From the sequence record NZ_CP012356.1: DNA of 53,985 nt. One strand, written 5' to 3'. This DNA is from a plasmid. Both the position numbers and the translations under genes were made by a program. Below the pieces are notes generated by a model, which searched no databases, was not told the origin of the DNA, and was given only the letters and a program-made list of their open reading frames with translations. This document shows positions 35,107 through 48,497 of the stretch, in pieces; the first letter of the stretch is position 1; every line of letters starts with the position of its first letter.

Positions 35107-35996
35107 CCATTACTGCTTTGTCCCTGCTGGCCGGGGCCATCGTCACTGTCGGACTGCTGGTCATCGTGGCAGCGTTCCGCCCAGCCCCAGGCCCTGACCT
35201 GGTTGCCGCTCTGGAGGTGGTGTCGGGTCGCACCTCAAGCGTCGCCGAGAACGTCGACCAGACCCGGATCGGGCGGATAGGTCGCAGCGTGACCCGCACA
35301 TTCCATGTGTCGGTGTCCCCGGCCATGCGGGCCGCACTGCGACTCCAAGGCACGACCCCCGAAGCGTTCTACGGTCGACGCCTGATCTGCGCACTGATCG
35401 GGGCGATCCTGCCGTGGCTGCTCAACGCGGTAGCCATCGCGGTAGGGGCGAATTCCCCGAACCTACTCATCCCTTCGGCGCTGTGTGTGGCGTTAGCTGG
35501 CGCTGGATGGATGCTGCCGGCAGCACGGTTGAAGGCTGCGGCCGGGCCCACCAACGATGACTCGTTCGAAGCGCTGCTGGTATTCATCGATTTGGTCGTG
35601 CTGGAACGGCTCGCCAACGAAACCTCCGTCGACGCGCTCACCAATGCGGCAAACATGTCGGACTCGCCGCTATTCGTCCAGATCCGTCAAGTCCTCAACC
35701 GTGCCTCCCTGGAAAACGTCGACCCGTGGAACGGGCTAGACCGGCTAGCCGAGGACATCAAACTGCCCGAACTCACCGATGTGGTCTCCATCGCCCGCCT
35801 CCAAAACGAAGGCGCCTCCCTCGTCGACAGTTTCCGGGCCCGAGTCGCCGAGTTGCGCGACGCCTACCTGCTGCGCCTGCAACAAGAATCCACCGCCATC
35901 ACCCAGCGGCTTGGTTTGTGGACGATCCTGCAAGCCGGCTCGGTCATGCTCATCTTGCTGGGGGCGGCCGCCCTCACACTCATCACAGCCGGATAA
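35103..35996 (+). CDS. tadC: TadC inner-membrane pilus assembly protein (297 aa)
   Basis: Transmembrane helices; synteny after tadB. Confidence 0.65.
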   Translation: MTITALSLLAGAIVTVGLLVIVAAFRPAPGPDLVAALEVVSGRTSSVAENVDQTRIGRIGRSVTRTFHVSVSPAMRAALRLQGTTPEAFYGRRLICALIGAILPWLLNAVAIAVGANSPNLLIPSALCVALAGAGWMLPAARLKAAAGPTNDDSFEALLVFIDLVVLERLANETSVDALTNAANMSDSPLFVQIRQVLNRASLENVDPWNGLDRLAEDIKLPELTDVVSIARLQNEGASLVDSFRARVAELRDAYLLRLQQESTAITQRLGLWTILQAGSVMLILLGAAALTLITAG

Positions 35997-36096
35997 ACCG
36001 ACATCGTGTCGAGCCCCCATATGGGCCGCGAACCTTTCATAATGATGCCTGTAAGCACCACAATATTGATCACAACCTAACAATGAAGGAGAAATC

Positions 36097-36291
36097 ATGA
36101 TGACCGATCTCGACCTGGCTAAAAAACAGATCACCTGGCTGGCGGCGCACCTGCGTTCCCGGATCGTTGACGAGCGTGGCGGTGGTAGCTCTACCGTGGA
36201 GACACTGATTTGGATTGGTGTCATCGTGGCGCTGGTGATTGGTGTGGGCGTCGGGGTGACGGCCTATATCAGGTCGAAGATGCCTCACTGA
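36097..36291 (+). CDS. flp: Flp-family pilin precursor (64 aa)
   Basis: AAGGAG RBS; leader ...ERGGGSSTVETLIW followed by a hydrophobic stretch (Flp-type prepilin motif). Confidence 0.6.
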   Translation: MMTDLDLAKKQITWLAAHLRSRIVDERGGGSSTVETLIWIGVIVALVIGVGVGVTAYIRSKMPH

Positions 36292-36296
36292 CGACG

Positions 36297-36674
36297 ATGC
36301 GTAGCAGGTTCACAACTGATCAGCGTGGCGGTGGTAGCGCGTCGGTGGGGATGCTCCTGCTGATGCCTGCGATCATGCTGCTGGCATTCGGTGGGATCGA
36401 GGTCGGGATGTGGTGTCACGCCCATCAGTCGACCATCGCGGCAGCCCAAAGCGCCGCGGAGGCTCAGCGTGTCGTCCATCCGGTCCCGGGGTCGGCACAG
36501 GAGGCAGCCTCGCAGATCACTAGTCATGGCGGGGTGCGTGATACCCGGATATCGGTCAGTGATGACGGGGCCACTGTCACGGTGACCGTCTCAGGTCGGG
36601 CCCCATCGATGCTGGGGCTGCATCTTCCGGCTGTGTCGTCGACAGCGTCGATGCCCAAGGAGCGCCTGTCGTGA
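36297..36674 (+). CDS. TadE-like pseudopilin 1 (125 aa)
   Basis: N-terminal QRGGGSASVGMLLLMPAIMLLAFGG prepilin-like motif plus hydrophobic helix. Confidence 0.55.
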   Translation: MRSRFTTDQRGGGSASVGMLLLMPAIMLLAFGGIEVGMWCHAHQSTIAAAQSAAEAQRVVHPVPGSAQEAASQITSHGGVRDTRISVSDDGATVTVTVSGRAPSMLGLHLPAVSSTASMPKERLS

Positions 36675-37084
36675 GGCGAAGTGAGCGCGGTGGAGCAAGT
36701 CTAAGCGTCGAGGTGCTCATGTGGGCGCCGATCGCGCTGGTGATCATCGGGTTTGTTGTGGGTATCGGCCGGATGTCGATGGCCCAGGACGCGGTGAATG
36801 GCGCGGCGGGTGCTGCGGCCCGTGCGGCGTCGTTGGAGCGTGATGGACAGTCGGCTCAGTCTGCGGCGCAGCAGGCGGCGTCGGCGAACCTGTCGTCCGG
36901 TGGGCTGGCATGTGCGCCGAATGTGAGCGTGGACACGTCAGTGTTTGCCCGTCCTGCCGGGCAGGCGGGCACGGTTCACGCCACGGTCACGTGTGTCACC
37001 TCGCTGGGTCTTGGGTTCGGGTCCCGGACGGTGCACGCAACGGGGTCTGCCCCGGTAGACACCTATCGGGAAAGGAGAGGCTGA
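36671..37084 (+). CDS. TadE-like pseudopilin 2 (137 aa)
   Basis: N-terminal SERGGASLSVEVLMWAPIALVIIGFV. Confidence 0.55.
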   Translation: MRRSERGGASLSVEVLMWAPIALVIIGFVVGIGRMSMAQDAVNGAAGAAARAASLERDGQSAQSAAQQAASANLSSGGLACAPNVSVDTSVFARPAGQAGTVHATVTCVTSLGLGFGSRTVHATGSAPVDTYRERRG

Positions 37085-37085
37085 G

Positions 37086-37487
37086 ATGGCCCGTGATGAG
37101 CGTGGTGGCGGCTCGGTGTCGGTGTGGATGCTGCTCATGGTGCCGGTGATTCTGGTCATGGCCGGCCTGGTTTTTGACGGGTCCCGTCAGATATCGGCAA
37201 CCCAGGCGGCCCAGGACGCGGCGGTTGCGGCATCCCGCGCCGGAACTGATGCGGCAGCGACACCGCAGCTTGCTGGCCACGACGGGGCGGCCGTAGCAGT
37301 CCAAGCGGCCCGCCAGGCACTATCTGCTGCCGGGGTGGACGGGTCGGTGCAGGAGGACGGGTCGACCATCACGGTGACCACGTCTCAAAGTCGGCCGACA
37401 GTGTTCCTGTCAGCGATCGGAATCAGCCAGGTAAGGGGGCATGGGCAGGCCCATGCTCAGCTTGTGGGACCGGGAGAACGCCCATGA
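37086..37487 (+). CDS. TadE/TadF-like pseudopilin 3 (133 aa)
   Basis: N-terminal DERGGGSVSVWMLLMVPVILVMAGLV. Confidence 0.55.
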   Translation: MARDERGGGSVSVWMLLMVPVILVMAGLVFDGSRQISATQAAQDAAVAASRAGTDAAATPQLAGHDGAAVAVQAARQALSAAGVDGSVQEDGSTITVTTSQSRPTVFLSAIGISQVRGHGQAHAQLVGPGERP

Positions 37488-40400
37488 CAGTGATACGTCG
37501 TATCGGTGCCCTGGTGGCACTGCTGGTGGTGATAGCCGGCTTACCGGCCGGGCTCGTGGCCGCAGGCGCCCCGCTAGTACCGGCGGGCCTGTCATGGGCC
37601 CATGTGCGGCATCTGTTGGTTACCCCAGACATGACCGGGTCGGTGCTGGTGTGGCTGGTCAGCCTCATCGGCTGGATCGGGTGGGCATGGTTCGCCCTGG
37701 CCGTCGCAGCCGAAGCGGTGACGATGCTCTCAGGGCAGCGGCTGCACTGGCACATGCCCGGCCCTCGCCTAGTGCGCCGAGTGGCAGCCGGTCTTCTCAT
37801 TGCCGCGTTCGCGGCCGCACCGGCAGCCACAAGCACGGCTCACGCCGCCGAGGCCACCCATGTGGCGGTCGCCGCCCAGGCTGGACCGGCACACGCGGCC
37901 CCCGCCCAGGACAGCCCCGCCACCACCTCTCAGGCCCCGGACGCCTCCACCACTCCGAAAATCTGGAAGACCTACACGGTGCGGGCCAACGACTACCTGT
38001 GGAAGATCGCCGAGCACTACTACGGTGACGGCGCCCAATTCCGTCGTATCGCCGAAGCCTCCGGTATCGACCCGCACTCAGAGCTGAAAGTCGGCCAGAA
38101 ACTGATCCTGCCGGTTCCTAAGAACACGGCCGCAGTTCATTCGGTTAAAGCGGGGGAGTATCTGTGGGAGATCGCCGAGCACTACTACGGTGACGGCGCC
38201 CAGTACCATAAAATCGCTGAAGCTTCCGGTATCGATGCCCATTCCGATCTAGCCGTGGGCCAAAAACTCGTCATCCCCGGGCCCCTCCGCCACGACGCCA
38301 CGCCGCCACACCACTCGGCGTCGACCCACGCGAAGGCCGCCACCCCAGCCCACACGCCCACGCGACGGCCTGCGCCTGCCCACAAAGCCACGCCCGCCCC
38401 GACGCCGGCCACCCCAACTACTCCGACCCACACGGTGACCCCAGCTCCGGCCTCTGCCGGCCACTCGACCAGCGACGAGCACCCACTCCATACGGATACC
38501 GCCGCAGCGGACAAGGCCAGCAACGAGGACGCCCTGTCCCCAATCCAGGTGGGTTTGACCGCCAGCGTCGGACTGGTGCTGGTCGCCGGACTGATCACCA
38601 CCCTCAACCGCCGCTACCGGACCCGGTTCACCCGCCAGCCCCGCGGCAAGGCCATGACCCTGCCCAGCCCGGACGCCCAAACTGCCGAGATAGCGCTGCG
38701 CAGCACCGGGGCGACTGACACTCTGACGATCACCTGCCTCGACCAGGCGCTCCGCGCGATCGGCGCATGGTGCCACCACTGCGGGCACCCGCTGCCACCC
38801 CTGCTGGCCGCCCGCGTCGATGACGACCGGATCGACCTGCTGCTATCCCAGGCGGCCCCCGACCATCCCGAGGCGGTGGAGCTGGCCGCCGACGGATCGG
38901 TGTGGACCCTCACCGCCGACCGGATCGACGACCTGCTAGCCCACACCGATGACAACCAAGCGGCTCCGTGGCCGTCTCTGGTCACACTGGGACGCGACGA
39001 CGACGGCGCCCACATCCTCATCGACTTGGAAGCCGCAGGAACCTTGCACCTGATCGCCGATGACGACCAGGTCGACGCGGCCCTCGCCGCGATCGCCGTG
39101 GAACTGGCCACCTGCGACTGGTCCGACGAAGTCAACGTCACCCTCGTCGGCCAGGTGTGCCCGGGCCTAGAAGACGCACTAGAGTCTCCGACCCTGACCC
39201 GCGCCACCGACGTGGACACCCTCCTCACCACCCTAGAAGCTCGCGCCGACGACCAGCGACACATCCTCACCGAAGGAAACCCCCTCGCCGCTCACCGAGC
39301 CGACCCCGCCATCTCCGACGGGTTCGACGCCGAAGTGATCCTCCTCGACACCGAACTCACCGAAGACCACCGCAACCGCCTCGCCAGCCTCGTCGAGGCT
39401 CTTCCCCGCGTGTCAGTCGCCGCGGTAACAACCAGCCCCACCAGCTCAGACGAATGGTCCCTCACCCTGACAGGTGACCCACTAGCCGCCGACCTGGCTC
39501 CCCTCGGCTGGCACATCCACCCCCAAACCCTCTCCCCCGACCTGTACAACCGCATGGTTGAACTACTCGCCAACTCCGCCGCCGCAGACTACGAACCCGC
39601 CAGCTGGTGGAACCACGACGCCGACGACGAGCCCACCACCGACCCCACCAACGAGGAAGAATCTACCCCGAGCAGGCGAGCCCGCCCGAATATCCGCCTG
39701 ACCACCCTGACCGGCGGCATCGACCTATCCAGCGTCGACATCGACGACATCATCGACGAAGCCAACCAGGCCCTCGACAACACCGACCAGACCACCAACC
39801 AGGTTCGCGTCGACACCAACCAACCCGGCACCGACACCCCCTTCCCCATCGACGACATCGACCCGCTGAGCTCCGACCATCCGGTCCTATCCATCATCGG
39901 CCACCCCGACATCACAGGTGCCACTGGAACCGTTGGGCGCTCCCCGTGGCGCTGCCAACAGTTGGCTCTCTACATCGCTGAGCATCCGGGAGCATCGGGG
40001 GCGACTATCGCCGATGATTTGGGGCTATCAGCGTCGACGGTGCGCTCGATTGCTACACACCTGCGACACTGGTTGGGAGCCGACGATGCCGGGGTGGCTT
40101 ACATGCCGGCGGCGACGCGCGGCTACCGGCTCGATGAGCGGATCGTCACAGATGTGGACCTGATCGACGCTGCTGTGGCCGGGGCAGGCATTAACACCGC
40201 TGAGACGGCCACACTGGTGGCCATTTTGAAGCTGGGCCGCGGACGGGTCTTCGCTGGGGTTCCTGACTCGGAACTTCGCCAGTTCAGGGCGTCGATGTAC
40301 CACGTGGAGGCCCGCATCGTCGATGCTGCCCTCCAAGTGACAGACCGGGCCCTGGAAGCCGGGGACCTGGGGCTGGCCCGGTGGGCGTTGACCCAAGGGC

Positions 40401-40597
40401 TACTGGTGTCTCCCGATCATGAGGACCTGGTCACCGGTTGTCTGCGCACCGAGTACCAGGCCGGCAACATGGACAAGGTTTCCGAGCTGGTCGATCACCT
40501 GTCGGCTACCGCACGACGCCTGGGCGTCGATTTGAGCGCCGACACCACCCGGATCATCGACTCCGTTATTACCCATACACGCAGGAGAGCATCATGA
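37484..40597 (+). CDS. Large membrane protein (1037 aa): N-terminal transmembrane region, two LysM repeats, Pro/Thr-rich linker, second transmembrane segment, then a C-terminal winged-HTH plus BTAD (SARP-like) domain
   Basis: Two near-identical LysM units YxVxxxDYLWxIAEHYYGDGAQxxxIAEASGIDxHSxLxVGQKLxxP; C-terminal region with a BTAD-like layout. Confidence 0.6.
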   Translation: MTVIRRIGALVALLVVIAGLPAGLVAAGAPLVPAGLSWAHVRHLLVTPDMTGSVLVWLVSLIGWIGWAWFALAVAAEAVTMLSGQRLHWHMPGPRLVRRVAAGLLIAAFAAAPAATSTAHAAEATHVAVAAQAGPAHAAPAQDSPATTSQAPDASTTPKIWKTYTVRANDYLWKIAEHYYGDGAQFRRIAEASGIDPHSELKVGQKLILPVPKNTAAVHSVKAGEYLWEIAEHYYGDGAQYHKIAEASGIDAHSDLAVGQKLVIPGPLRHDATPPHHSASTHAKAATPAHTPTRRPAPAHKATPAPTPATPTTPTHTVTPAPASAGHSTSDEHPLHTDTAAADKASNEDALSPIQVGLTASVGLVLVAGLITTLNRRYRTRFTRQPRGKAMTLPSPDAQTAEIALRSTGATDTLTITCLDQALRAIGAWCHHCGHPLPPLLAARVDDDRIDLLLSQAAPDHPEAVELAADGSVWTLTADRIDDLLAHTDDNQAAPWPSLVTLGRDDDGAHILIDLEAAGTLHLIADDDQVDAALAAIAVELATCDWSDEVNVTLVGQVCPGLEDALESPTLTRATDVDTLLTTLEARADDQRHILTEGNPLAAHRADPAISDGFDAEVILLDTELTEDHRNRLASLVEALPRVSVAAVTTSPTSSDEWSLTLTGDPLAADLAPLGWHIHPQTLSPDLYNRMVELLANSAAADYEPASWWNHDADDEPTTDPTNEEESTPSRRARPNIRLTTLTGGIDLSSVDIDDIIDEANQALDNTDQTTNQVRVDTNQPGTDTPFPIDDIDPLSSDHPVLSIIGHPDITGATGTVGRSPWRCQQLALYIAEHPGASGATIADDLGLSASTVRSIATHLRHWLGADDAGVAYMPAATRGYRLDERIVTDVDLIDAAVAGAGINTAETATLVAILKLGRGRVFAGVPDSELRQFRASMYHVEARIVDAALQVTDRALEAGDLGLARWALTQGLLVSPDHEDLVTGCLRTEYQAGNMDKVSELVDHLSATARRLGVDLSADTTRIIDSVITHTRRRAS

Positions 40598-40633
40598 TCT
40601 CCCGTTGCACTCATCTCCGTCAGGAAGGTTCCT

Positions 40634-41221
40634 ATGCACCATTATCGTCTTGGTATCGGCACTGCCCTCATCGCGGTAGCAGCCGTGGCCGGCTGTCGCT
40701 CAACAGACTCGACACCCACACCACCTCCATCCCGTGTCTCCGCCACGACATCAGCGAGCTCTACCCTCAGCCCGACCCCGTCAGCCGGAGCGATCAGTGC
40801 CGCCGACGCCGAAAACATCTACCGCACCGTCCAAGCTAACAAGATCGCACTGTACAAAAAGGGTGGCCTGGCACCCGGGGAACCCGCACCCGCGACACTG
40901 TCGAACTACGCCACCGGCCAGGCTCTCACCGACTACATGACCTACATGCACCAAATCTCGGGGCAGGGCATCAAAATCACATCGGGGAACTCCTCGGTTA
41001 CCGCGGTGCGGGAGAAAAAGGGTGATACCACCTACCCCGAAGCCGCTATCGCCTTGGAATCGTGCGAAGACGACAGTTCGATTCGTACCGTGGACCGCCA
41101 CGGAAAGGCTGATCATGGACGCATTTTCCATGTCGACAGTTGGTATGCCCGCGATAAGAAGGGCACCGTCAAGATGATCGCATTCAACTCAACGGAGGTC
41201 CCCACATGCGACGTCAAGTAA
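40634..41221 (+). CDS. Lipoprotein (195 aa)
   Basis: Signal peptide with lipobox VAGC; AGGAAGG RBS. Confidence 0.55.
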   Translation: MHHYRLGIGTALIAVAAVAGCRSTDSTPTPPPSRVSATTSASSTLSPTPSAGAISAADAENIYRTVQANKIALYKKGGLAPGEPAPATLSNYATGQALTDYMTYMHQISGQGIKITSGNSSVTAVREKKGDTTYPEAAIALESCEDDSSIRTVDRHGKADHGRIFHVDSWYARDKKGTVKMIAFNSTEVPTCDVK

Positions 41222-42087
41222 TCACCGCGGCCGTACTGGGCCTGGCCCTGGCCACCACCTCCCTGCCCGCCCTCGCAGGCGGCGGCGACTTGAACGGCAG
41301 TGTGGACACGGATGGCCCTGGTTACGATGTGCGTACTGAGGTGGATTACCATCACACCACCGGTGGTGCGGGTGGGGGTGCCACGACAGGGGGCCATCAT
41401 GGGGGCAAAACCCACGGTGATGGTGAAGGTGAGGCTATTGATGGGCGTTCTCGCGCCGATGCCGAAGCCGAACTAGACGAAGCCGACCGTAACCAGGACT
41501 TGACTTGTGATGTCTTGCTCCCACCGGCGCCGAATACCCCAGCCGGCCAGGAATGGGCGAAAGAATGCAATCCCCCAGCGAAAAAGGGGCAGAAGGCCAC
41601 CCCGAAGCCCGATCCGGTGTTAGTGGGCCGTCACGCGGCCTTGCAGCTCACCCTTCCCGGCGCGGCCCCTCGTATCGATCCGTCCCCCGACCTTAACCGG
41701 TGGCACTCGGCAGCAGTGGGCCAGGCTTTGTGGTTGTCGGTTGATGACCCCACCGCCACTACGCAGAAATCGATCACGTTTATGGGCCAGGTTGTCTCGT
41801 TGAGCGCCAAACGTAACGGTTTGTCGTTTGATATGGGTGATGGTCATGTCGTGCACTGTGATGCCACGACGACATGGACGGAGTCGGTGGAACCGGGGAC
41901 CCCCTCACCCACGTGCGGTTACACCTACCAACAGGCAGCCCCGGCCGGGGGCTATAAGGTCACCGCAATCACGTCGTGGGATGTGACCTGGTCGGTACTA
42001 GGACACACGGGCACAGTCCACATCCAGAAGGCCGGTGGGCAGATGCTTCCGGTCGGCGAGTTGGAGTCTGTTGTTACACGGCGATGA
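41206..42087 (+). CDS. Secreted protein (293 aa)
   Basis: Signal peptide ending in ALAGGG. Confidence 0.5.
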   Translation: MRRQVITAAVLGLALATTSLPALAGGGDLNGSVDTDGPGYDVRTEVDYHHTTGGAGGGATTGGHHGGKTHGDGEGEAIDGRSRADAEAELDEADRNQDLTCDVLLPPAPNTPAGQEWAKECNPPAKKGQKATPKPDPVLVGRHAALQLTLPGAAPRIDPSPDLNRWHSAAVGQALWLSVDDPTATTQKSITFMGQVVSLSAKRNGLSFDMGDGHVVHCDATTTWTESVEPGTPSPTCGYTYQQAAPAGGYKVTAITSWDVTWSVLGHTGTVHIQKAGGQMLPVGELESVVTRR

Positions 42088-43082
42088 CTCCTGATAGTCC
42101 GACGCTGTATGAGGTGTTGGAGGTCTGCCCTGATGCCACTGATGACCAGATCAAGACGGCGTGGCGTCGTGCCGCGAAAGTGACTCACCCTGATGCCGGT
42201 GGCACTAGTGAGGCGTTCGCGGCCGCCCGGCACGCCTGGGAGGTGTTGTCTGATCCTGCCCGGCGCACCGCCTACGATGCCGACCTGGCGGGGGAGGATG
42301 ATCCCGACGACGAAGCCGCCGACGCCTTCGACGTTGATCCGTTCACGGCATGGCCCTGGTGCGCCCCGTACATCGACGCCACCCCCACCCTGCGCCACAC
42401 CTGCCCCGGCACGATCAAGGCCATCGTGGTCGCCATCGCCGGGATCATGGCCGGAATCGGCTGGCAGGAAGCGCTGGAGGCCGTGGTGTCGCCGCCGGGG
42501 TTTCTGGGGGCGTGCTGGATAGTCTCAGTGCCGGTTGTCGTCGCAGTGACATGGCTGGCAGCGGTGACGGGTCTGGCATTTTTCACCATGGCGGCCATCT
42601 GGTGTGGATGGTCGTTGATAGGTGGTGCGTTGCTGTGGGGCCAGACGTCGGTGGTGTGGCTGATTGCTGCGGGGTGGCTGGCATGGCTGGTGTGTGCGTG
42701 GGTGTGGTGGAACCGTCATCTGGCGTGGAGTAGCGAGCTGATGCAGGAAGGCAATTTGTACGGCCTTCCCGAGGAAGACCCGTTGTGGGGCGAGGCCGTG
42801 GAGCTGGTAGCGGGACTTATCCCCTCTGTGCGGGCGATGTGGTCGCACGATGGGCAGACCGTGACTGTGTCGGCTGGCCGGCGGGTGGCGACACTGGGGA
42901 TGCCGATGCGGGGATGGCGTGGTATCGAGATGCGCGGCTGGAATCCAGTGGGCGCCGATACGTGGTGGATCGTTGACCAGGTGGGTAGTTGGCTGGTCGA
43001 TCAGGATGAGCCGATGGTCGTTGACGGGAGGGTGCTCCATGAGGCGTGGGAACGGTCGCAGATGGTCCGTTCAGGCCGCTGA
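42084..43082 (+). CDS. J-domain (DnaJ-like) protein with C-terminal transmembrane helices (332 aa)
   Basis: J-domain LYEVLEV...AWRRAAKVTHPDAGG with the HPD motif; ATGA coupling to the upstream gene. Confidence 0.6.
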   Translation: MTPDSPTLYEVLEVCPDATDDQIKTAWRRAAKVTHPDAGGTSEAFAAARHAWEVLSDPARRTAYDADLAGEDDPDDEAADAFDVDPFTAWPWCAPYIDATPTLRHTCPGTIKAIVVAIAGIMAGIGWQEALEAVVSPPGFLGACWIVSVPVVVAVTWLAAVTGLAFFTMAAIWCGWSLIGGALLWGQTSVVWLIAAGWLAWLVCAWVWWNRHLAWSSELMQEGNLYGLPEEDPLWGEAVELVAGLIPSVRAMWSHDGQTVTVSAGRRVATLGMPMRGWRGIEMRGWNPVGADTWWIVDQVGSWLVDQDEPMVVDGRVLHEAWERSQMVRSGR

Positions 43083-43150
43083 GAAAAAATTTAGGTCCGC
43101 CCTGCATATCGGGGCCTCTTCATACCTTCAAAAGTGTGAAGGGAATACAG
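43083..43150. repeat. Copy 1 of a roughly 70-bp direct repeat (GAAAAAATTTAGG...CCTTCAaaagtgTGAAGGGAATA); copy 2 is at 45361-45433
   Basis: Read directly; together with the diverged duplicated gene 3' end (42975-43082 versus 45255-45360) the copies bracket a roughly 2.2-kb insertion. Confidence 0.55.
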
Positions 43151-43250
43151 ACTCTTCGACTGGAATTAAAATGGTATATGGCGTGTCCGGTCCGCACCCA
43201 GCTCCACGATGCGCCATAGGGGAGCCATAACTTCACCAATCGTATACGAT

Positions 43251-43517
43251 ATGAGTGTAGGTGAGCATCTACCGGTGGCCGACAGTCAGATACAAGCATG
43301 GGCGGATGAAGCAGAAGCTGATTATGACCTCAGCATGCTTCCGCCGTCTCGACGTGGTCGCCCACCGGTGGGGAGGGGCCCGGGCACTGTGGTCCCTGTG
43401 CGCTTCGACGCGGACACTCTCAAGGCGTTGTCACAACGAGCCCCTGACGAAGGATTGACCACGCGTTCTGACGCGATCCGTGCTGCGGTTAACCAGTGGC
43501 TCGGCCTCGGCTCGTAA
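43251..43517 (+). CDS. CopG-like ribbon-helix-helix protein (88 aa), antitoxin-like
   Basis: C-terminal RHH VVPVRFDADTLKALSQRAPDEGLTTRSDAIRAAVNQWL. Confidence 0.45.
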   Translation: MSVGEHLPVADSQIQAWADEAEADYDLSMLPPSRRGRPPVGRGPGTVVPVRFDADTLKALSQRAPDEGLTTRSDAIRAAVNQWLGLGS

Positions 43518-44085
43518 ACATTATCGGCGCGACAACCTTACTGATGACGCTGTTGGTTACGCCGTAGAGCACATCTTGTACTCGTGGGCGCTCGACGATG
43601 CTGATGATCCTCGTTGCTGGATGATGATTCGGTGTTGACCCAGCTGGCCTCCTCATGGAGCTAGTTATCCTCATCTACGACGATGGCTATGAACTCCTGA
43701 TCCACGCCATGAAAGCCCGCCCTCAGTATCTGAGCTACTTCGCTATCTAGTGTTGTTGGGCGAGTTGAACTCAACTTTTCTCCGACGCAAGCGCCAATAA
43801 AAGGCTGATCCATCCGAATACCACCAAACACGGCTGACGTGTGGAACAGATTCAGCAAGACAGGGTGCAGTGCTCGGGTGCGTTGGGGAGATGAGGATAT
43901 TCAGGCTTCTGGCGGGATGTGGCTTGATGACGTCCAGGATCACCGGTTCGGTTTTGAAGGTGCCTTGCATTAATGTCGACAGGGTCGTACGACTCGAGGA
44001 CTGGATCGACCAGCCCGTTGCGTCTGAAGAACTTCATCCACCCCGGTGGAGCTCCGGCCGCGTACTGGTGCAACGGATCATTAGC

Positions 44086-45060
44086 ATGGGTAGCGTGAGT
44101 ATGCCTTCGATCGTGGTCAGTGCTGTCATCATCCAAGGTTCTGACGGGCGGCTTCTCACTGTCCGTAAACGAGGCACCGAGGCATTCATGCTGCCAGGCG
44201 GCAAGCCGGAGCCCGGCGAGGACTCGCGTCAGGCAGTAGTCCGGGAAGTGCACGAAGAGCTCGGCGTCGCATTGTCTTCCGACGACCTGCGTCGGGTGGG
44301 AGTGTTCACCACGCGAGCAGCGAATGAGGCCGGCCATCAGGTGGTGGCGACGATTTTCACCCACACCCCGGTTGCGGTGAGTGAGCCAGCTGCTGAGATC
44401 GAGCAGATTCGTTGGCTCGATTGGAGTGTCGACGCCCTGCCTGATGACCTGGCCCCGCTGCTGGTCGAGGCAGTCATCCCGTGGCTGCGGCGCCGTATCC
44501 GGTCGGTCGCTGTATTCACGGGTGCGAAGGATGGAACCGACCCTCATTATCGTGTCGAAGCAACCGCCTTGGGCCGGGGTCTCGCACACGCCGGGATCAC
44601 CCTGGTTTATGGCGGCGGGAAGGTCGGGATGATGGGTGCTGTTGCTGATGCGGCCCTCGCTGCTGGCGGCGCTGTGATCGGAGTGATGCCGCAGCACTTG
44701 GTGGACGGGGAGATCGCCCATCCTAGTCTGACTCACCTCGAGGTAGTGCGGACTATGCATGAGCGCAAGCAGCGGATGAGTGACCTAGCTGACGCGTTCG
44801 TCGCGCTACCCGGCGGCGGCGGAACCCTTGACGAGCTATTCGAAGCATGGACATGGCAGCAGCTCGGTGTACACAGCAAACCCGTGGCCTTGTACGACTC
44901 GACCTTCTGGGCACCGCTGACCGCGCTACTCAACCACATGACCATCGAAGGCTTCATCCGCCCTGAGGACCGCGCCTCGCTCGTGATCGCCGATACCATA
45001 CATCAGCTGATGGCCGATCTTGAGGGATGGACCCCACCACCACCGAAGTGGCGCTCGTGA
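44086..45060 (+). CDS. Nudix hydrolase - LOG (lysine-decarboxylase-like / nucleotide 5'-monophosphate nucleosidase) fusion protein (about 324 aa; start could be 44101)
   Basis: Canonical Nudix box GKPEPGEDSRQAVVREVHEELGV; LOG motifs GGGKVGMMGAV and PGGGGTLDELFE. Confidence 0.75.
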   Translation: MGSVSMPSIVVSAVIIQGSDGRLLTVRKRGTEAFMLPGGKPEPGEDSRQAVVREVHEELGVALSSDDLRRVGVFTTRAANEAGHQVVATIFTHTPVAVSEPAAEIEQIRWLDWSVDALPDDLAPLLVEAVIPWLRRRIRSVAVFTGAKDGTDPHYRVEATALGRGLAHAGITLVYGGGKVGMMGAVADAALAAGGAVIGVMPQHLVDGEIAHPSLTHLEVVRTMHERKQRMSDLADAFVALPGGGGTLDELFEAWTWQQLGVHSKPVALYDSTFWAPLTALLNHMTIEGFIRPEDRASLVIADTIHQLMADLEGWTPPPPKWRS

Positions 45061-45360
45061 CATAGAACAAATGATTCTGACTATGGCTCATTGACATCTG
45101 CGCAGCGGCTACTAGCTCCATTGACTTCAAATCGGGCCTTGGCCGAGGCTCGGTTCAGGTGGCCCGGAATGGATCCCCACAAATTGAATGCTCATGATCG
45201 AGGTGATGAACGCCCACTCTATTGTCCTACGCCCGGTTGTATCCAGCGAGCAATTGAAGGTGCTGCGCCTGTTGGTCGACCAGGCCGAGCCACTCATCAT
45301 CGACGGGCGCATCTTGTACGAGGCATGGGACAGGCTGCAAACAGCCCGTCCGGCCCGCTA

Positions 45361-45433
45361 GAAAAAATTTTTAGGGCCCGCTCCGCACATCCCGGTCTGT
45401 ACCCACACCTTCAAGGGTGTGAAGGGAATAAAA
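45361..45433. repeat. Copy 2 of the roughly 70-bp direct repeat with the CCTTCAagggtgTGAAGG palindrome
   Basis: Aligns with 43083-43150; preceded by a diverged copy of the last about 30 codons of the J-domain gene. Confidence 0.55.
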
Positions 45434-45512
45434 ACACACCTAACAACAACTTTGTTTCATGATTTGGCGCGTCGGACCCTTTCTGACCGATGTCGTGCGC
45501 AACAATGGACCC

Positions 45513-45857
45513 ATGAGTTCGCCTACCAAGATGCGCCGGAAGGGGACACGCGGCCCGAAACCTCGCAGCGACGAGGAGCTAACGGCTGTGATGTTCCGCG
45601 TCCCAGAGTCAGTGGCCGAACGTGTCAGCGATATGGCTTGGGAGCTGAGGCTCTCCCGATCCGATCTTGTGGGCTGGTCGGCCCTCTATGCACTCAACTC
45701 GATGCTCAGACAGCGCGGAGAGGACACGATTCCGGTTCCGGAGTATCTGGACAAGGCCGTGCTCGCTGCGTTGTATCCCGATGGGTTGCCCTTCGACGAG
45801 GACACCGAGGAGCCGGGCGAGAATGCCGGGCAGGAGGAGCTTGCGATGACTGGATGA
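45513..45857 (+). CDS. Ribbon-helix-helix protein (114 aa)
   Basis: RHH MFRVPESVAERVSDMAWELRLSRSDLVGWSALYAL; acidic tail. Confidence 0.45.
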   Translation: MSSPTKMRRKGTRGPKPRSDEELTAVMFRVPESVAERVSDMAWELRLSRSDLVGWSALYALNSMLRQRGEDTIPVPEYLDKAVLAALYPDGLPFDEDTEEPGENAGQEELAMTG

Positions 45858-45972
45858 GCCCGAACATGGTTGAAGGCCGCCCCGCCAGGCGACCTTCAAT
45901 CAATGGTTTCGGTTGTCAGCTGCAGCCACCCTTGCCAGGTGCTGTGGTTCTTCTCCAGAGGAGGAGGGACCG

Positions 45973-46170
45973 CCATGAAGACCCAGAAGACCTAGAAGAT
46001 CCAAAAGAACCGGTTTCGGCTGTTGCTTCGGTCTTCATGGTAGCTGATAGCCCGCGTCGTTGGAAGTGCGACGACGCCGATCCTCATCGGTATCGCACCC
46101 TGTTCCAGGGTCGAGAATGTGAAGGATTAACAACCATGACAAGTCATGAGACGCCCTCCCGGAGGGCGTC
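45973..46170. promoter_or_regulatory. Regulatory region upstream of rep: inverted repeat CCATGAAGACC...GGTCTTCATGG (45973-45983 / 46030-46040), AGAAGA(C/T)C direct repeats, and the 21-bp palindrome GACGCCCTCCcGGAGGGCGTC (46150-46170) abutting the rep ATG
   Basis: Read directly; the palindrome overlaps the RBS/start region, typical of Rep autoregulation. Confidence 0.5.
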
Positions 46171-47742
46171 ATGACCGCTTTAATTCAAGCTCTGCCGACA
46201 GCTGAACTGTCTGCTGGACCTGGTGCTAGCAGTCCAGCTAGACCCTCTGCTGAGGGCTTCATCAAGATTCACCACGACCTCATTAGTGCGGGCGTGTCGG
46301 GTAACGCGATGGCGTTGTTCGTCGCGTTACGTAACCAGCCCGGCTGTGATCAGTGGACCCGTCACTCGTACCTGCGGCTAGCCCAATGGTGCGGCTGGGA
46401 TGGGCTGTCGGAGGCGGCGGGCTGTAAGCGGGTGCAGCGGGCCGCTGCTGAGCTCGCTAGCGGTGGTTGGCTGGAATCGCGGGTCGGCCATGATCGTCGC
46501 ACCGCTAAGACGCTGGTGTGGCATCGGTTGACCAGCCCCGACACCGACCGCTGGGAGCAATTGCCGCGGATTGTGTGGGCGAGGATCTGCCAGATCGCCG
46601 GGGAGACGTCGGGAGAGTGGGTGAGGCATTGGCTGGTGTGGCGGATGCTGGCCGGTCGTACTGGTGTGGCTCAGGCCCCTACGTCCATCGTGGCCCGGTT
46701 CCTGGGCTGTTCTTCGCGCCAGGTCTCTCATATCCGTGGGGCTCTCGTTGATGCCGGTCTGCTCGGCTGTGACGAGGTCTCGGGGGCGGCGAGCCGGGTG
46801 TGGTTCCCCTCGATGGCCGAGGAGTGTGAAGCGGATCGTGAGGTGGTCGATGGGGCCGTCGTCGATGCTGAGGTGGGCTCTGGTGAAGGTGTCGAGGAGG
46901 GCGGGGAACCCCTGTCGATTTTGTCCACCCACCCCTGTCGATTTTGTCCATCCACCCCTGTCGATTTTGTCCGCCAAGTATTAGACAAACCATTAGACAG
47001 TGAATTAGACCCTGGGTCGCGTCAGCGTGTGAACTCACCAACGCGCGCGCGCGCGGCGGCCGAGCCGCCGAAGCCAAAGAAACCCATACCACCAACGCCT
47101 GAACCAGCAGCCCCCGCTTCAGACAGTCCTGTGTCAGCGCACGCTGATGAGGCTGCCGAGTTGGCGTGGCAGTTCGTGGGGTGGTGTCCTCAGCTGGTAG
47201 GGGCACCGAAGAAGGTGCGTGGCCAGCTCCGCCAGATGGTCGCTGCCGAGATCCGCCGGAATCCGGGCTGGCTGGATGCGCCAGCGTTGGAGGTTGTTGC
47301 CCAGCGGGTACGTGCTGAAGGTGCGCTGGGGGTCCAGCACTGTGAGATTGTGCGAGCCGAGCTGCACGGGGTGATCGCCGACCAGAAGGCCGCCCCCGCC
47401 CGCCCCGACGCCCTGCACGCGCGGGAGCCCAAGTGGTGGGACGACGTGTACTACGAAGGAAACACAACCGTGTGGTACGACTCTGACGAAACCAGTGACG
47501 ACGACGAGGCGTGGAACCGGTCGCAGGTATGTCATGTTGCTGAGCGTGACGACATGGCTGGCGGGATTGCTACCAACCTGCTGGCCTCCCACGCTGATGA
47601 TCCGATGGCCTGGCTGACTCGCCGTCAAACCATGCTGATGGCTCGTTTCCCCCACGCCCAGAACGAGGTCATCGCGATGTGCCACATCGTGCGCACCGCC
47701 CTGGAGGCCGACATGGCCGCCGGAACCCGGTGGGAGGACTGA
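46171..47742 (+). CDS. Candidate replication initiator (523 aa): two N-terminal winged-helix-like segments, Pro/Lys-rich linker, C-terminal domain; iterons lie inside the coding sequence, an arrangement like lambda O
   Basis: N-terminal winged-HTH-like blocks; 3 x 23-bp iterons plus AT-rich 7-mers in-frame within the ORF; coupling to the downstream HTH gene. Confidence 0.5.
   Translation: MTALIQALPTAELSAGPGASSPARPSAEGFIKIHHDLISAGVSGNAMALFVALRNQPGCDQWTRHSYLRLAQWCGWDGLSEAAGCKRVQRAAAELASGGWLESRVGHDRRTAKTLVWHRLTSPDTDRWEQLPRIVWARICQIAGETSGEWVRHWLVWRMLAGRTGVAQAPTSIVARFLGCSSRQVSHIRGALVDAGLLGCDEVSGAASRVWFPSMAEECEADREVVDGAVVDAEVGSGEGVEEGGEPLSILSTHPCRFCPSTPVDFVRQVLDKPLDSELDPGSRQRVNSPTRARAAAEPPKPKKPIPPTPEPAAPASDSPVSAHADEAAELAWQFVGWCPQLVGAPKKVRGQLRQMVAAEIRRNPGWLDAPALEVVAQRVRAEGALGVQHCEIVRAELHGVIADQKAAPARPDALHAREPKWWDDVYYEGNTTVWYDSDETSDDDEAWNRSQVCHVAERDDMAGGIATNLLASHADDPMAWLTRRQTMLMARFPHAQNEVIAMCHIVRTALEADMAAGTRWED
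46909..47056. repeat. Candidate origin: three tandem 23-bp iterons (CCCCTGTCGATTTTGTCCA(C/T)C...; 46909-46975), three ATTAGAC 7-mers at 12-bp spacing (46980-47010) and a (GC)7 run (47041-47056)
   Basis: Read directly. Confidence 0.6.
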
Positions 47743-48497
47743 TGAGGGTCTCCCGGCGCGCCCTCATGGCCGTGGCCCGTGCCGACGCTGCCGCAGCAGA
47801 CCATGCCACCGGCCGATGGGTGGCCACAGCCAACGCCACCGTCGCCCGGCTGACCGGACTGTGCGAACGCACCGTCCAATACGCCCGCGCCACCCTGGTC
47901 CACCTGGGCCTGTGCCGCGTCGTGGCCACCGGCCGCTACCTCACCGCCGACGAGCGGCGCACGGCTGCTCGCACCCATGGCGGCCGCCAGATGCGCGCCG
48001 CCTCCACCCGCGTCCTCACCATGTCCTGCGCAATCGTTTGCGCCCTACCCCGAAGGGGTCACCACTACAGGAAAGTTAAGTTCCTAGATGGTCACCAACG
48101 CACGCGCAGGCGCGTGCGAAGGCCAGCAACACCAGAGAAGAAACCCCTGTGGCTGCAAAAACTCGCAGCCCTCCTCGACGCCATGAACCGCAGGAACCGT
48201 CGCCTCGGCCTCGACGTGCCATGCGCCGACGACCAGCACAACCCCTTGGGACTGTTCATCCATCAGGCCCGAGACACCCTCACCCACGACAACCCCCATG
48301 AACGCCGCCTAGCCCGTGACGCTGAACGCGCCCGGCTCATCGACGACCAACTCCGCCGCCGCGCAGAAACCGCCACCTGCGCAGCCCGCCTCGCAGCCGA
48401 GCACGCCGACCCCGACTACCAGACCCGCCGTCGTGAACGCAGGGAAACCCTGCGAGCCACACTCAGGGCCGCCCAGCAGCATGTCAGGACACACTGA
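47742..48497 (+). CDS. HTH protein, Arg-rich C-terminus (252 aa), translationally coupled to rep
   Basis: TGATG overlap; HTH VARLTGLCERTVQYARATL. Confidence 0.45.
   Translation: MRVSRRALMAVARADAAAADHATGRWVATANATVARLTGLCERTVQYARATLVHLGLCRVVATGRYLTADERRTAARTHGGRQMRAASTRVLTMSCAIVCALPRRGHHYRKVKFLDGHQRTRRRVRRPATPEKKPLWLQKLAALLDAMNRRNRRLGLDVPCADDQHNPLGLFIHQARDTLTHDNPHERRLARDAERARLIDDQLRRRAETATCAARLAAEHADPDYQTRRRERRETLRATLRAAQQHVRTH

Follow-up and report, generated by a model that had tools for sequence, protein, structure and literature searches.

The window, a stretch of 53,985 nucleotides (sequence record NZ_CP012356.1), stems from a large conjugative tad (Flp-pilus) plasmid of the skin bacteria Cutibacterium acnes/modestum which encodes FtsK/SpoIIIE-type and T4SS-type transfer proteins. 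Four Cutibacterium plasmids match the window at 94.9-97.5% identity. An insert of 2279 bp (43083-45361) separates its tad locus from the replication/ParA region. The features of the locus are as follows.

42087-43082, plus strand: gene for a J-domain (DnaJ-like) membrane protein, last in the tad/Flp-pilus locus (Pfam DnaJ, 2.6e-15)
42975-43082, plus strand: duplication copy A (tailA), the last approximately 35 codons of the J-domain gene, with the J stop at 43082
43083-43155, plus strand: leader element copy A, with the A/T tract AGAAAAAATTT, a degenerate CCTGCATATC box, a hairpin and GAATA
43251-43517, plus strand: RHH (CopG-type) predicted antitoxin gene, 88 aa from the ATG at 43251 (Pfam RHH_1)
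43480-43750, plus strand: frameshifted toxin pseudogene, two halves in different frames
43751-44085, plus strand: non-coding spacer upstream of the Nudix-LOG gene, about 336 bp
44086-45060, plus strand: Nudix-LOG fusion gene, 324 aa (Pfam NUDIX and LOG)
44098-44490, plus strand: Nudix domain, about aa 5-135, with the Nudix box at aa 39-61
44497-45051, plus strand: type-I LOG domain, aa 138-322, with MHERK (aa 224-228) and PGGGGTLDE (aa 242-250) intact
45061-45254, plus strand: spacer between the Nudix-LOG stop and the J-tail remnant, 194 bp of lower GC content (52%)
45255-45361, plus strand: duplication copy B (tailB), the 3' remnant of a J-domain allele, within a 57-aa ORF
45362-45435, plus strand: leader element copy B, with AGAAAAAATTT, a CCGCACATC box (45383-45391) and a hairpin
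45459-45857, plus strand: first gene of the replication/partition region, a 132-aa ORF for which shorter starts are annotated elsewhere

The end of the J-domain gene and the element downstream of it recur at about 70% identity, as an earlier note on this DNA had stated: the alignment of positions 42994-43147 with 45273-45430 has 159 columns, 6 gaps and 69.8% identity (blastn E-value 3e-14 for the two alone and 1e-12 in a search of the whole window), and blastn found no other comparable match to the repeat in the whole window. The repeat comprises the last approximately 35 J codons and an element of about 75 bp, and its copies lie 2.28 kb apart. TailB is contained in an open frame of 57 aa (45188-45361) which ends at the homologous stop codon. 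TailA and tailB share 17 of 30 residues with conservative changes, and their differences are distributed 12/6/14 over the codon positions, fewest at second positions. The J gene, homologues of which are annotated in RefSeq as 'J domain-containing protein', is hypervariable among plasmids, with alleles at 98, 83, 79, 64-66, 57 and 53% amino acid identity, and two functional alleles share 15 of the 30 residues, so that the divergence between tailA and tailB is no greater. Judged by this comparison, tailB falls within the range of functional J alleles and its divergence is of the coding type. The A and B copies have exchanged sequence patches across seven plasmids.

Both copies of the leader element share the pattern AGAAAAAATTT...CCTTCA-N6-TGAAGGGAATA, the hairpin being CCTTCA-AAAGTG-TGAAGG (43125-43142, followed by GAATA) in copy A and CCTTCA-AGGGTG-TGAAGG (45408-45425) in copy B. 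Copy A has an RNA fold of -23.4 kcal/mol (z = -2.8) and matches no Rfam family. The palindrome is part of a leader element present in six copies ahead of the plasmid's operons; the window contains 5 occurrences of CCTTCA-N4-8-TGAAGG where 0.02 would be expected, which substantiates the earlier claim that the repeat carries the palindrome of the other leader elements.

The plasmid lineage L018/L019 is colinear with the window, of which positions 34107-42289 match 1-8206 of L018 and positions 45364-47776 match 9146-11553 at 89.5% identity. In L018/L019 the J stop is followed directly by a copy-B-type element and then by the 132-aa gene, window positions 43083-45361 are absent, and the stretch examined holds neither RHH, toxin nor Nudix-LOG genes. 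The full-length J gene of L018 ends exactly at the position of the tailB stop, and in the empty-site plasmids copy B lies directly 3' of the J stop codon. The empty site of L018/L019 supports an insertion; together with the repeat match, this bears out the description of an insertion bracketed by a diverged duplication. Alternatively, the empty-site plasmids could have lost the segment secondarily through recombination of one repeat with the other, in which case they would not show the ancestral state. Identity breakpoints between plasmids lie at the repeats: against all four references a diverged patch upstream of approximately 43100 gives way to 99-100% identity beyond it, and the breakpoint with pKB17 lies near 45300 (both in 100-bp bins), while p11-79 diverges from the window somewhere in 45000-46000 (500-bp bins). 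The gene at 45459 lies outside the insert and is the one preceded by the ancestral element; it shares 95% amino acid identity with the gene directly after J in L018/L019 and is followed by genes for a 523-aa protein, a 'replication protein' and ParA. It matches RHH_1 only below threshold (E 0.16), is possibly RHH-like, and has no similarity to the RHH gene at 43251-43517.

The RHH gene, whose frame is open from an ATG at 43209 (102 aa), matches Pfam RHH_1 from either start (E about 1.4e-5 to 1.9e-5; 24.9 bits against a cut-off of 20.5), in agreement with the earlier identification of a CopG-like RHH gene between the copies, and has a weak match to BrnA_antitoxin (0.021). Its product is 67% identical to the RHH protein of the RHH-toxin pair on Propionibacterium freudenreichii p545 (WP_176703045) and 52-60% identical to those of 'toxin'-adjacent RHH genes on Rhodococcus, Arthrobacter and Cellulosimicrobium plasmids; each of the four reference plasmids carries the gene intact, at 93.5-98.9% conservation. 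What had been taken for an AT-richer spacer with a mini-ORF at 43637-43735 is a frameshifted toxin gene. The N-terminal half is a 52-aa ORF (43480-43638) whose GTG start overlaps the RHH stop, the C-terminal half (43631-43750) is read in a different frame and has the motif LIHAMKAR in a mini-ORF at 43655-43750, and the frameshift lies near 43630. Over 94% of its length, the reconstructed toxin of 77 aa shares 72% identity with a protein of p545 annotated as 'toxin' (WP_179892813), which itself matches phrog_36779 'toxin'. The reconstructed product also matches 'toxin' genes on approximately 30 plasmids from Rhodococcus, Dietzia, Arthrobacter and Cellulosimicrobium, and the family has no match among Pfam and NCBIfam models. 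It matches all four Cutibacterium plasmids in two pieces, so these share the frameshift, and pKB17-24694 has in addition lost the C-terminal half. Like the p545-type pair, the locus has the order RHH followed by a small toxin with overlapping or adjacent ends, and Dietzia plasmids carry homologues besides those of the other three genera. In contrast to the intact pairs on p545 and on Rhodococcus and Arthrobacter plasmids, the toxin frame is broken in all Cutibacterium plasmids examined. The RHH protein is therefore best described as the predicted antitoxin of a type II toxin-antitoxin pair which is dead as an addiction module because the frameshift inactivates the toxin, and it may at most still repress its own promoter. 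The addiction role considered earlier holds in so far as an addiction module is present, but the toxin is dead and the module is separate from the enzyme.

The spacer at 43751-44085 matches Cutibacterium plasmids only. A deletion of 299 bp (43685-43983) in pKB17-24694 removes part of it, and in C. modestum M12 the repeat spacing is similarly shortened; in both plasmids the element copies start 1994 bp apart, against 2278-2279 bp in other plasmids. The spacer at 45061-45254 has no homology to the J gene and is presumed to be the region of an illegitimate junction.

The Nudix-LOG protein carries Pfam matches to NUDIX (5.6e-14) and Lysine_decarbox/LOG (3.2e-41), both on an ORF of 43870-45060. Its start is the ATG at 44086 and not 43870, because homology to the closest relative sets in at 44075 and homologous proteins have 314-340 aa; that relative does not conserve the N-terminal 72 codons by which the long ORF is extended. 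The Nudix box G39-x5-E45-x7-R53-E-V-x-E57-E58-x-G-V is intact. Its TIGR00730 score is 188 bits (cut-off 96), and it scores 138 bits against the NCBIfam cytokinin-LOG equivalog, short of the cut-off of 300. Among solved structures, the type-I LOGs 5zbj/5zbk and 5its match the sequence best (E 2e-60 to 3e-59). In the AF2 model of the fusion (pLDDT 93, pTM 0.78) the LOG half superimposes on CgLOG and PaLOG (TMt 0.91-0.96, 48-57% identity) and the Nudix half on MutT-type structures (TMt 0.66-0.74). The HMMs and the model thus confirm the earlier assignment of a Nudix-LOG fusion with a canonical Nudix box and PGGGGTLDE, and the LOG catalytic motif, the possible lack of which the note had raised, is intact on alignment. 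The catalytic residues Arg99 and Glu122 of CgLOG and its prenyl-pocket residues Met96, His97, Lys100, Glu125 and Trp129 (PMC4979012) correspond, by our motif matching on alignments, to R227 and E250 and to M224, H225, K228, E253 and W257.

Like the type-I LOGs of C. glutamicum (Cg2612; 5ITS/5ZBL) and P. aeruginosa (PA4923; 5ZBJ), the C-terminal 185 residues conserve the MHERK and PGGxGTxxE motifs and the pocket residues, but the fusion adds an N-terminal Nudix domain in one polypeptide, and the first acidic residue of its motif (GTLDE) is Asp, not Glu. Residues 3-135 find their best matches among NTP pyrophosphohydrolases of the MutT type (MutT, NudG, mycobacterial MutT2), with which they share the canonical box and the fold, though at only 20-24% identity, with no equivalog cut-off reached and fused here to LOG; ADP-ribose pyrophosphatase models gave one match only (8.8e-4). 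The dN/dS value of 0.15 relative to the closest homologue points to purifying selection, and the gene is intact in all 17 plasmid loci out of 17. The few substitutions among plasmid copies are mostly non-synonymous, which could indicate relaxed constraint on the plasmid.

The two-domain architecture is shared by at least 120 clusters of relatives at 50-84% identity, many of them on chromosomes of 2-4 Mb. Chromosomal homologues at 50-66% identity occur on Mb-sized chromosomes of Corynebacterium, Glutamicibacter, Brevibacterium, Arthrobacter, Nakamurella and Leucobacter, and NCBI names the actinobacterial family 'TIGR00730 family Rossman fold protein' or 'LOG family protein YvdD'. The family alignment has approximately 56 invariant positions including both catalytic motifs and a family-specific AANE motif. 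The plasmid copy shares the size range and both catalytic motifs with the chromosomal family and differs from it in being placed inside an insertion beside a dead toxin-antitoxin pair, where its relatives stand alone. Four chromosomal neighbourhoods are mutually unrelated and contain no RHH, toxin-antitoxin, defence or mobile-element genes. By sequence, then, the fusion belongs to a widespread actinobacterial family of stand-alone chromosomal genes, largely removing the link to mobile elements on which the earlier reading depended; the distribution is at the same time patchy and not demonstrably that of a housekeeping gene. The closest homologue (L003, 84% identity) has no toxin-antitoxin pair beside it, and the two parts of the cargo would thus have been joined at some earlier step. 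Fusion of LOG proteins to Nudix hydrolases, or their location in a shared operon, has been reported in a secondary account (PMC7913349, citing Samanovic et al. 2015). The view that the module is not assignable to a described system has to be given up, as the architecture is that of a large TIGR00730-annotated family with fusions already in the literature. An enzymatic characterisation of fusion-family members was not found in the literature searched.

Judged by domain family alone, the MutT-like Nudix domain would strip pyrophosphate or phosphate from a purine nucleoside tri- or diphosphate, probably of adenine or N6-modified adenine, to give the 5'-monophosphate, the sole form that LOG enzymes accept, and the LOG domain would then cut the N-glycosidic bond. 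Most likely, a (modified) purine nucleoside di- or triphosphate would be converted via the monophosphate to the free base and ribose-5-phosphate. Plant LOG did not convert cytokinin di- or triphosphates, the beta- and gamma-phosphates of which must be removed first (PMC7913349). A narrower version of this reaction, in which C. acnes would release N6-modified adenine bases as a host- or community-directed signal by analogy to the LOG of Mycobacterium tuberculosis (Rv1205) and the fas LOG of the Rhodococcus fascians linear plasmid, is doubtful. By motif mapping, every prenyl-pocket residue that CgLOG, AtLOG3 and CpLOG have in common is conserved (PMC4979012), a Nudix step would provide LOG with the monophosphate it needs (PMC7913349), and the mycobacterial LOG is described at second hand as active on cytokinin nucleotides (PMC7913349, citing Samanovic et al. 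2015). However, isopentenyl-transferase and cytokinin oxidase genes are absent from the insert and its flanks, bacterial LOGs also hydrolyse plain AMP (PMC7913349), and the cytokinin-LOG equivalog cut-off is missed; this reading is a special case of the preferred explanation and no true alternative to it.

It is unlikely that the enzyme destroys immune nucleotide signals or toxic ADP-ribose derivatives after conjugation, with cADPR isomers, cyclic oligoadenylates and ADPR-derived molecules as candidate targets. Phages are enriched in SLOG- and Nudix-domain proteins, for which the degradation of ADPr-derived signals has been proposed (PMC9503650), IMG/VR viral contigs contain Nudix and LOG genes as separate neighbours, and the gene is borne by a conjugative plasmid, but the LOG half belongs to the classical type-I LOGs, shares 48-57% identity with AMP/cytokinin-nucleotide phosphoribohydrolases and lies outside the YpsA/ThsA-like SLOG clade implicated in cADPR biology (PMC9503650). 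The Nudix half is weakly like the PADLOC candidate PDC-S07 (E 9e-11), a generic Nudix similarity, and is of the NTP-pyrophosphatase rather than the ADP-ribose pyrophosphatase type. The closest relatives stand in the chromosomal contexts described above, and the gene adjoins the replication region and does not lie in a recognisable leading or anti-defence island. The anti-defence role suggested by the earlier note found no support in this analysis.

That RHH represses the duplicated leader element and so controls Nudix-LOG, or that both form a regulated unit or a new addiction pair with a toxic enzyme, is in either form highly improbable. The RHH gene has stayed intact beside the dead toxin, the three genes lie on one strand downstream of a leader-element copy, and nucleotide depletion by unregulated Nudix-LOG could in principle be harmful. 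Homologous RHH genes elsewhere, however, pair with a small toxin in stand-alone two-gene modules on other actinobacterial plasmids and never with Nudix-LOG, which speaks against the proposed regulation of the fusion, and Nudix-LOG homologues never have an adjoining RHH gene in the neighbourhoods examined. Between the toxin remnant and the enzyme gene lies the non-coding spacer, which the pKB17-24694 deletion cuts while leaving the RHH and Nudix-LOG genes untouched, and the chromosomal homologues show that the enzyme is tolerated on its own. Prevention of redundant transfer by the Nudix domain, as by the Nudix protein Pif of Streptomyces pSAM2, is very remote: Nudix genes are frequent on actinomycete conjugative elements and Pif works in conjugal immunity (PMC3218068), and the plasmid does encode the transfer proteins, but the nearest relatives are chromosomal Nudix-LOG fusions rather than element-borne stand-alone Nudix proteins and the LOG fusion has no counterpart in Pif.

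The locus as a whole is probably best explained by homeologous capture of the 2279-bp segment, with a dead toxin-antitoxin pair and a bifunctional enzyme as cargo. The ancestor would have had the order J-domain gene, leader element and replication-region genes, as kept in the diverged plasmid lineage, and would have recombined with another replicon bearing a different J allele. One joint would be a homologous crossover in or near the J gene and the other an illegitimate junction approximately 105 bp before the resident J stop, with no part played by a transposase, an integrase or terminal repeats; no recombinase or att-type core was identified at the insert. This would yield a complete J gene ending in tailA, a second leader copy, the cargo, the stranded tailB and the original element. 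The difference of approximately 30% between the copies would exist because they originate from different J alleles, and the two would still trade patches through gene conversion. A donor replicon with J, element, toxin-antitoxin pair and Nudix-LOG was not found. As in Campbell-type or homeologous insertions in mosaic plasmids, the insert lies between direct repeats copying the target region, with an empty site in a relative and identity breakpoints at the repeats, but here the repeats are diverged and one of them is a truncated gene end. We infer this recombination route, as we do the enzyme's substrates and any benefit to the plasmid; the anatomy of the locus, the empty site, the broken toxin, the intact domains and motifs and the occurrence of homologues on chromosomes are shown.

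Overall, the insert is an ordinary mosaic accessory insert of a Cutibacterium plasmid and less exotic than first thought, because the enzyme is a common chromosomal gene of related bacteria. Its cargo combines two unrelated things, a toxin-antitoxin pair and a chromosomal-type bifunctional enzyme, and given the two-step reaction proposed above the role of the latter would lie in nucleotide catabolism, in the clearing of modified nucleotides or in the production of free (cytokinin-like) bases.

The segment at 43083-45361 is a real insertion with real protein domains and can be accounted for by known kinds of element. The earlier note had regarded it as a module that could not be assigned to any described system, and this view is not supported: the module is reduced to three ordinary pieces, namely an accessory segment that a mosaic plasmid gained by recombination, an RHH-toxin pair in decay and a plasmid-borne version of a chromosomal-type Nudix-LOG enzyme that is widespread in actinobacteria. 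The diverged duplication that was said to bracket the segment is borne out by pairwise alignment and blastn, as 42994-43147 (copy A) and 45273-45430 (copy B) share 69.8% identity over 159 columns (pair E = 3e-14) and blastn finds nothing comparable in the rest of the window. The repeat is composed of the last 35 or so codons of the J-domain gene followed by an element of approximately 75 bp, which consists of AGAAAAAATTT, a GC-rich stretch and CCTTCA-N6-TGAAGGGAATA. A search with the J protein retrieves a series of alleles at 98, 83, 79, 64-66, 57 and 53% identity. The RHH and Nudix-LOG genes are present on every contig with the commonest allele, most of these contigs coming from human skin metagenomes, and also at the locus with the 57% allele (L020). 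The 53% allele is found in a related plasmid lineage represented by a 35-kb ENA contig (L018) and an independent Logan assembly (L019), both with a colinear tad locus, where the J stop codon is directly followed by a copy-B-type element and then by a gene for a protein of 132 aa. The plasmids of this L018 type correspond to ENA ERZ14211630 NODE_80 and SRR17738084. The product of this gene is 95% identical between this lineage and the window, and L018 9146-11553 matches 45364-47776 of the window at 89.5% identity. Compared with this empty site the window holds an extra 2279 bp, placed at 43083-45361 or in any equivalent register inside the repeat, which upholds the insertion. The empty site could reflect a secondary loss through recombination between the repeats; the stranded J 3' end in copy B (tailB) requires that an ancestor with the order J gene, element and replication gene underwent a rearrangement of the insertion type, and the derived state is therefore the arrangement in the window.

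The insert does not qualify as a transposon, insertion sequence or integron cassette: no ORF of 43083-45361 contains a transposase or integrase domain, no terminal inverted repeats or short target duplication were found, and the flanking repeats, diverged copies of about 180 bp of the J tail and element, are unlike a target-site duplication. The RHH-type proteins encoded beside the two copies (43209-43517 and 45459-45857) do not align to each other, and the duplication therefore stops short of the downstream genes. TailB is in frame and terminates at the homologous stop codon. It shares 17 of 30 residues with the corresponding end of the J gene in copy A (tailA), the replacements are conservative (M/L, V/I, H/Y, E/D) and the differences are distributed 12/6/14 over the three codon positions. 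Two functional J alleles, that of the window and that of the reference plasmids, agree at no more than 15 of the 30 residues there, so that the 30% divergence of the repeat is best read as an allele difference, with two J alleles joined by recombination between diverged plasmids, rather than as degeneration in situ. In a comparison of seven plasmids, copies A and B each occur in two types with patches in common; over 30 nt, copy A of pTP-CU411 has the sequence of copy B type 1, and the end of copy B type 2 resembles copy A type 2, which shows that gene conversion between the copies is continuing. The J-tail remnant lies inside a 57-aa ORF (45188-45361, a 'hypothetical protein' in RefSeq) that is open in both allele types; this ORF may be translated, or gene conversion with the functional J gene as donor may merely preserve its frame.

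Four Cutibacterium plasmids (C. modestum F0672, C. modestum KB17-24694, C. acnes pTP-CU411 and C. acnes p11-79) match 42900-45500 at 94.9-97.5% identity, and phage records gave no match to this region. In the plasmid records it is preceded by the last genes of the tad/Flp-pilus locus (TadG-related, LysM, two hypothetical and J-domain proteins) and followed by replication and partition genes (a 523-aa protein, a 'replication protein' and ParA). Identity profiles show the plasmid family to be a mosaic, with strain-to-strain identity of 98-100% over most of the plasmid and patches of 70-90%. The J-domain gene and the two genes preceding it (40500-43100) are only 57-90% identical to those of other Cutibacterium plasmids. 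In 100-bp profiles this left hypervariable patch ends near 43100 and the divergence of pKB17-24694 starts near 45300, in both cases at a repeat; the divergence of p11-79 begins within 45000-46000 (500-bp resolution). The J-gene tail and the leader element show themselves as recombination joints in a highly mosaic plasmid family. A reading of the insert as a recently spreading cassette, 99-100% conserved against flanks of 60-80%, was dropped, since 98-100% identity is the rule for most of the plasmid, with the J gene and a few further patches as the hypervariable exceptions. The insert does not stand out by its conservation; what stands out is the hypervariability of its left neighbour. Such variability in the J-domain membrane protein that closes the tad pilus locus hints at diversifying selection or at alleles that are often exchanged. 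Scanned for the element, genome contigs gave only two matches, one C. modestum contig and one scaffold labelled 'Clostridium leptum', each of which includes the insert. The latter (DS480336.1, 'Clostridium leptum DSM 753', 40 kb) contains both element copies, 2279 bp apart and identical to those of p11-79, and is most likely a Cutibacterium plasmid contamination of the Clostridium leptum assembly. The paper on the Flp-pili plasmid (PMC5696575) makes no mention of Nudix, CopG, recombination or mosaic. Within the ORF for the 523-aa protein, upstream of the 'replication protein' gene, three 23-bp tandem repeats in perfect register (ACCCCTGTCGATTTTGTCCACCC, 46908-46976) are iteron-like and may mark the replication origin.

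The product of 43209/43251-43517 is matched by Pfam RHH_1, in agreement with the domain assigned to it from the sequence. Translation of 43470-43900 gives two adjoining frames, together KHYRRDNLTDDAVGYAVEHILYSWALDDADDPRCWMMI / GVDPAGLLMELVILIYDDGYELLIHAMKARPQYLSY, and the toxin reconstructed from them is 72% identical over 94% of the query to the annotated 'toxin' of Propionibacterium freudenreichii plasmid p545 in tblastn, where it also matches 'toxin' genes on about 30 plasmids of Rhodococcus, Dietzia, Arthrobacter, Cellulosimicrobium and Corynebacterium. The alignment runs end to end. A search with the RHH protein retrieves the genes immediately upstream of those toxins, with 67% identity to the RHH protein of p545, and the order of RHH gene followed by toxin gene is found on at least 20 Rhodococcus, Arthrobacter and Cellulosimicrobium plasmids; the RHH protein is therefore assigned as the antitoxin of a two-gene module. 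The GTG start of the toxin at 43480 overlaps the end of the RHH gene, and near 43630 the toxin frame breaks, leaving a 52-aa ORF and a C-terminal half that is out of frame, for which reason the pair is classed as decayed rather than functional. All four Cutibacterium plasmids match the reconstructed toxin in two pieces, so the frameshift is common to them. The mini-ORF recognised earlier in the AT-richer spacer does exist (43655-43750), yet it is not an independent gene but the C-terminal half of the broken toxin. In pKB17-24694 43685-43983 is additionally lost, and C. modestum M12 shows the same shortened spacing of the element copies. Neither the reconstructed nor the intact p545 toxin is matched by a model of Pfam or NCBIfam, and the identification therefore rests on tblastn to annotated plasmids; the family has only a weak PHROG 'toxin' match. 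The RHH gene and toxin remnant are thus a predicted type II toxin-antitoxin pair in decay, in which 'toxin' is a label from annotation only.

The palindrome CCTTCA-N4-8-TGAAGG is present five times in the window against 0.02 expected, and its occurrence in a common leader element, as described earlier, is confirmed by the shared layout of the copies. Aligned toward the downstream gene, all copies consist of an A/T tract, a CCGCACATC box, 14-18 nt and a hairpin, CCTTCA-loop(4-6)-TGAAGG. The box occurs five times against 1.2 expected, and one occurrence exposes a sixth element, which precedes a WhiB-like ORF and whose hairpin has an imperfect arm.

Leader elements in the window (coordinates, strand, description)
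14260-14300, minus strand, A/T tract, box and hairpin
16628-16668, minus strand, A/T tract, box and hairpin
19790-19833, minus strand, A/T tract, box and hairpin
28022-28063, minus strand, 3' arm overlaps the Shine-Dalgarno sequence (ribosome-binding site)
43104-43142, plus strand, copy A
45383-45425, plus strand, copy B

From each element it is 10-110 nt to the first start codon of the gene or operon downstream, and every element points toward the leading gene of its operon. The six precede the T4SS operon, the WhiB-like ORF, two small genes, the RHH cargo and the replication region. The variable loop length favours a hairpin rather than a dimer operator. As the insertion duplicated one leader element, the cargo probably uses that copy, which makes the co-regulation hinted at in the earlier note reasonable, and the element may be a plasmid-wide regulatory hairpin. 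The sole Rfam match on 42800-46300 is at chance level, and the repeated element is therefore not a described RNA family. A scan for sigma-70 promoters and terminators gave no promoter-like sites, and terminator-like sites at chance level.

Pfam finds both the NUDIX and the LOG domain (PF03641, also SLOG cluster 4) in the ORF 43870-45060, in line with the fusion first noticed. A protein-collection search with this 396-aa ORF gave 1190 matches, of which the best 120 all combine NUDIX and LOG in 297-384 aa and cover about 80% of the ORF. The closest non-plasmid homologue (L003, 84% identity) shows homology at the DNA level solely from 44075 to the stop, and the gene is therefore 44086-45060, encoding 324 aa; the long ORF starting at 43870 was rejected, its first 72 codons having no counterpart in any homologue. 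Named matches lie on chromosomes of 2-4 Mb from Corynebacterium, Glutamicibacter, Brevibacterium, Arthrobacter, Plantactinospora, Nakamurella, Leucobacter and Oryzihumus. The four homologue neighbourhoods examined are mutually unrelated and contain no RHH, toxin, mobile-element or defence genes. The fusion family comprises more than 100 sequence clusters, and many replicons of Corynebacterium and Cutibacterium associated with humans are among its carriers. According to a review (PMC7913349), LOGs are found fused to Nudix hydrolases or in operons with them; a literature search returned no paper characterising the Nudix-LOG fusion. In an alignment of 36 sequences some 56 positions are invariant, among them those of the Nudix box, an AANE motif, MHERK and PGGxGTL(D/E)E; the gene is intact in 17 of 17 plasmid loci and its dN/dS against L003 is 0.15. 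Relative to 44086-45060, the copies in pKB17-24694 and C. modestum M12 have few substitutions, mostly non-synonymous, in numbers too small to interpret (7 nt and 6 aa differences).

The LOG motif PGGGGTLDE forms residues 242-250 of the 324-aa protein, of which P242, G243, G244, G246, T247, L248 and E250 are invariant in the 36 homologues. By motif matching, M224-H-E-R227-K228 and E250 correspond to the MH(E/A)RK and PGGxGTxxE segments of 5zbj and 5its, and the catalytic Arg and Glu of CgLOG (Arg99 and Glu122) and its five prenyl-pocket residues (PMC4979012) are all present when matched against the alignments. The solved structures closest in sequence to the LOG half are the type-I LOGs of P. 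aeruginosa and C. glutamicum. A confident AlphaFold model built on the alignment (pLDDT 93, pTM 0.78) superimposes its LOG half onto 5its, 5zbj and 5zbl with TMt of 0.91-0.96 at 48-57% identity (Foldseek). The protein scores 188 bits with TIGR00730 (cut-off 96) and 141 bits with PF03641 (27), and does not reach the cytokinin riboside 5'-monophosphate phosphoribohydrolase equivalog NF058542 (138.5 bits, cut-off 300); assignment to the type-I LOG family is secure, the exact substrate is not. The Nudix box, G39-KPEPG-E45-DSRQAVV-R53-E54-V-H-E57-E58-L-G60-V61, fits GX5EX7REUXEEXGU, with G39, E45, R53, E54, E57 and E58 invariant in the family, and PF00293 scores 52.7 bits (cut-off 21.1). The Nudix half of the model resembles the MutT-type structures 3hhj, 3r03 and 3grn (TMt 0.66-0.74), and its best matches are the NTP pyrophosphohydrolases MutT, NudG and MutT2, all far below equivalog cut-offs. 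The catalytic motifs are intact, and both predicted active sites are preserved in one chain under purifying selection. LOG can work on cytokinin nucleotides only once their beta- and gamma-phosphates have been taken off (PMC7913349). The fusion predicts a two-step conversion in which the Nudix domain would convert a nucleoside tri- or diphosphate to the nucleoside 5'-monophosphate, from which the LOG domain would release the free base and ribose-5-phosphate. Nucleotides of adenine, plain or N6-modified, are the probable substrates.

Other readings of the enzyme find limited support. [quoted passage not shown] A known anti-phage defence or anti-defence system was rejected, there being no specific model match and no conserved linkage of the homologues to defence genes in those neighbourhoods. 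On the IMG/VR contigs (L054 and L055, 49-80 kb, phage-like) Hsp70 (DnaK), Nudix and LOG are three adjacent separate genes at 3014-6040, near a T4-type RNA ligase; the unfused pair has a chaperone gene for a neighbour, a parallel, perhaps coincidental, to the position of the plasmid copy behind a J-domain gene. The pocket residues would allow cytokinin-type signalling, but a gene for an isopentenyl-transferase is absent from the vicinity. Control of Nudix-LOG by the RHH protein, as the earlier note supposed, or a new addiction pair of the two, fits poorly with the partner distribution of both genes, with the RHH homologues directly upstream of small toxins. Pif-like conjugal immunity through the Nudix domain, as in pSAM2, would be an analogy for which PMC3218068 is the lead.

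Two readings, independent of each other, are long shots: that Nudix-LOG dismantles adenine-based immune or alarm nucleotides, and that the six-copy CCGCACATC leader element is a plasmid-wide switch. If the first is true, Nudix-LOG would have been recruited from chromosomal nucleotide metabolism, would act by pyrophosphate cleavage and then base removal and would help the conjugative plasmid to settle in Cutibacterium hosts new to it, and the neighbouring Nudix and LOG genes of phages would perform the same job. If the second is true, the CCGCACATC...CCTTCA-loop-TGAAGG element would act, as RNA or as DNA, to bring the operons for transfer, replication and cargo under joint control. The parts that merit experiment are the leader element and the enzyme family, which is widespread on chromosomes and seemingly without biochemical characterisation. 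Its carrier here belongs to a tad plasmid family that the retrieved literature considers in connection with acne and with isolates from prostatic tissue and prosthetic-joint infections, and a released modified adenine or an altered nucleotide pool could therefore bear on host interaction.
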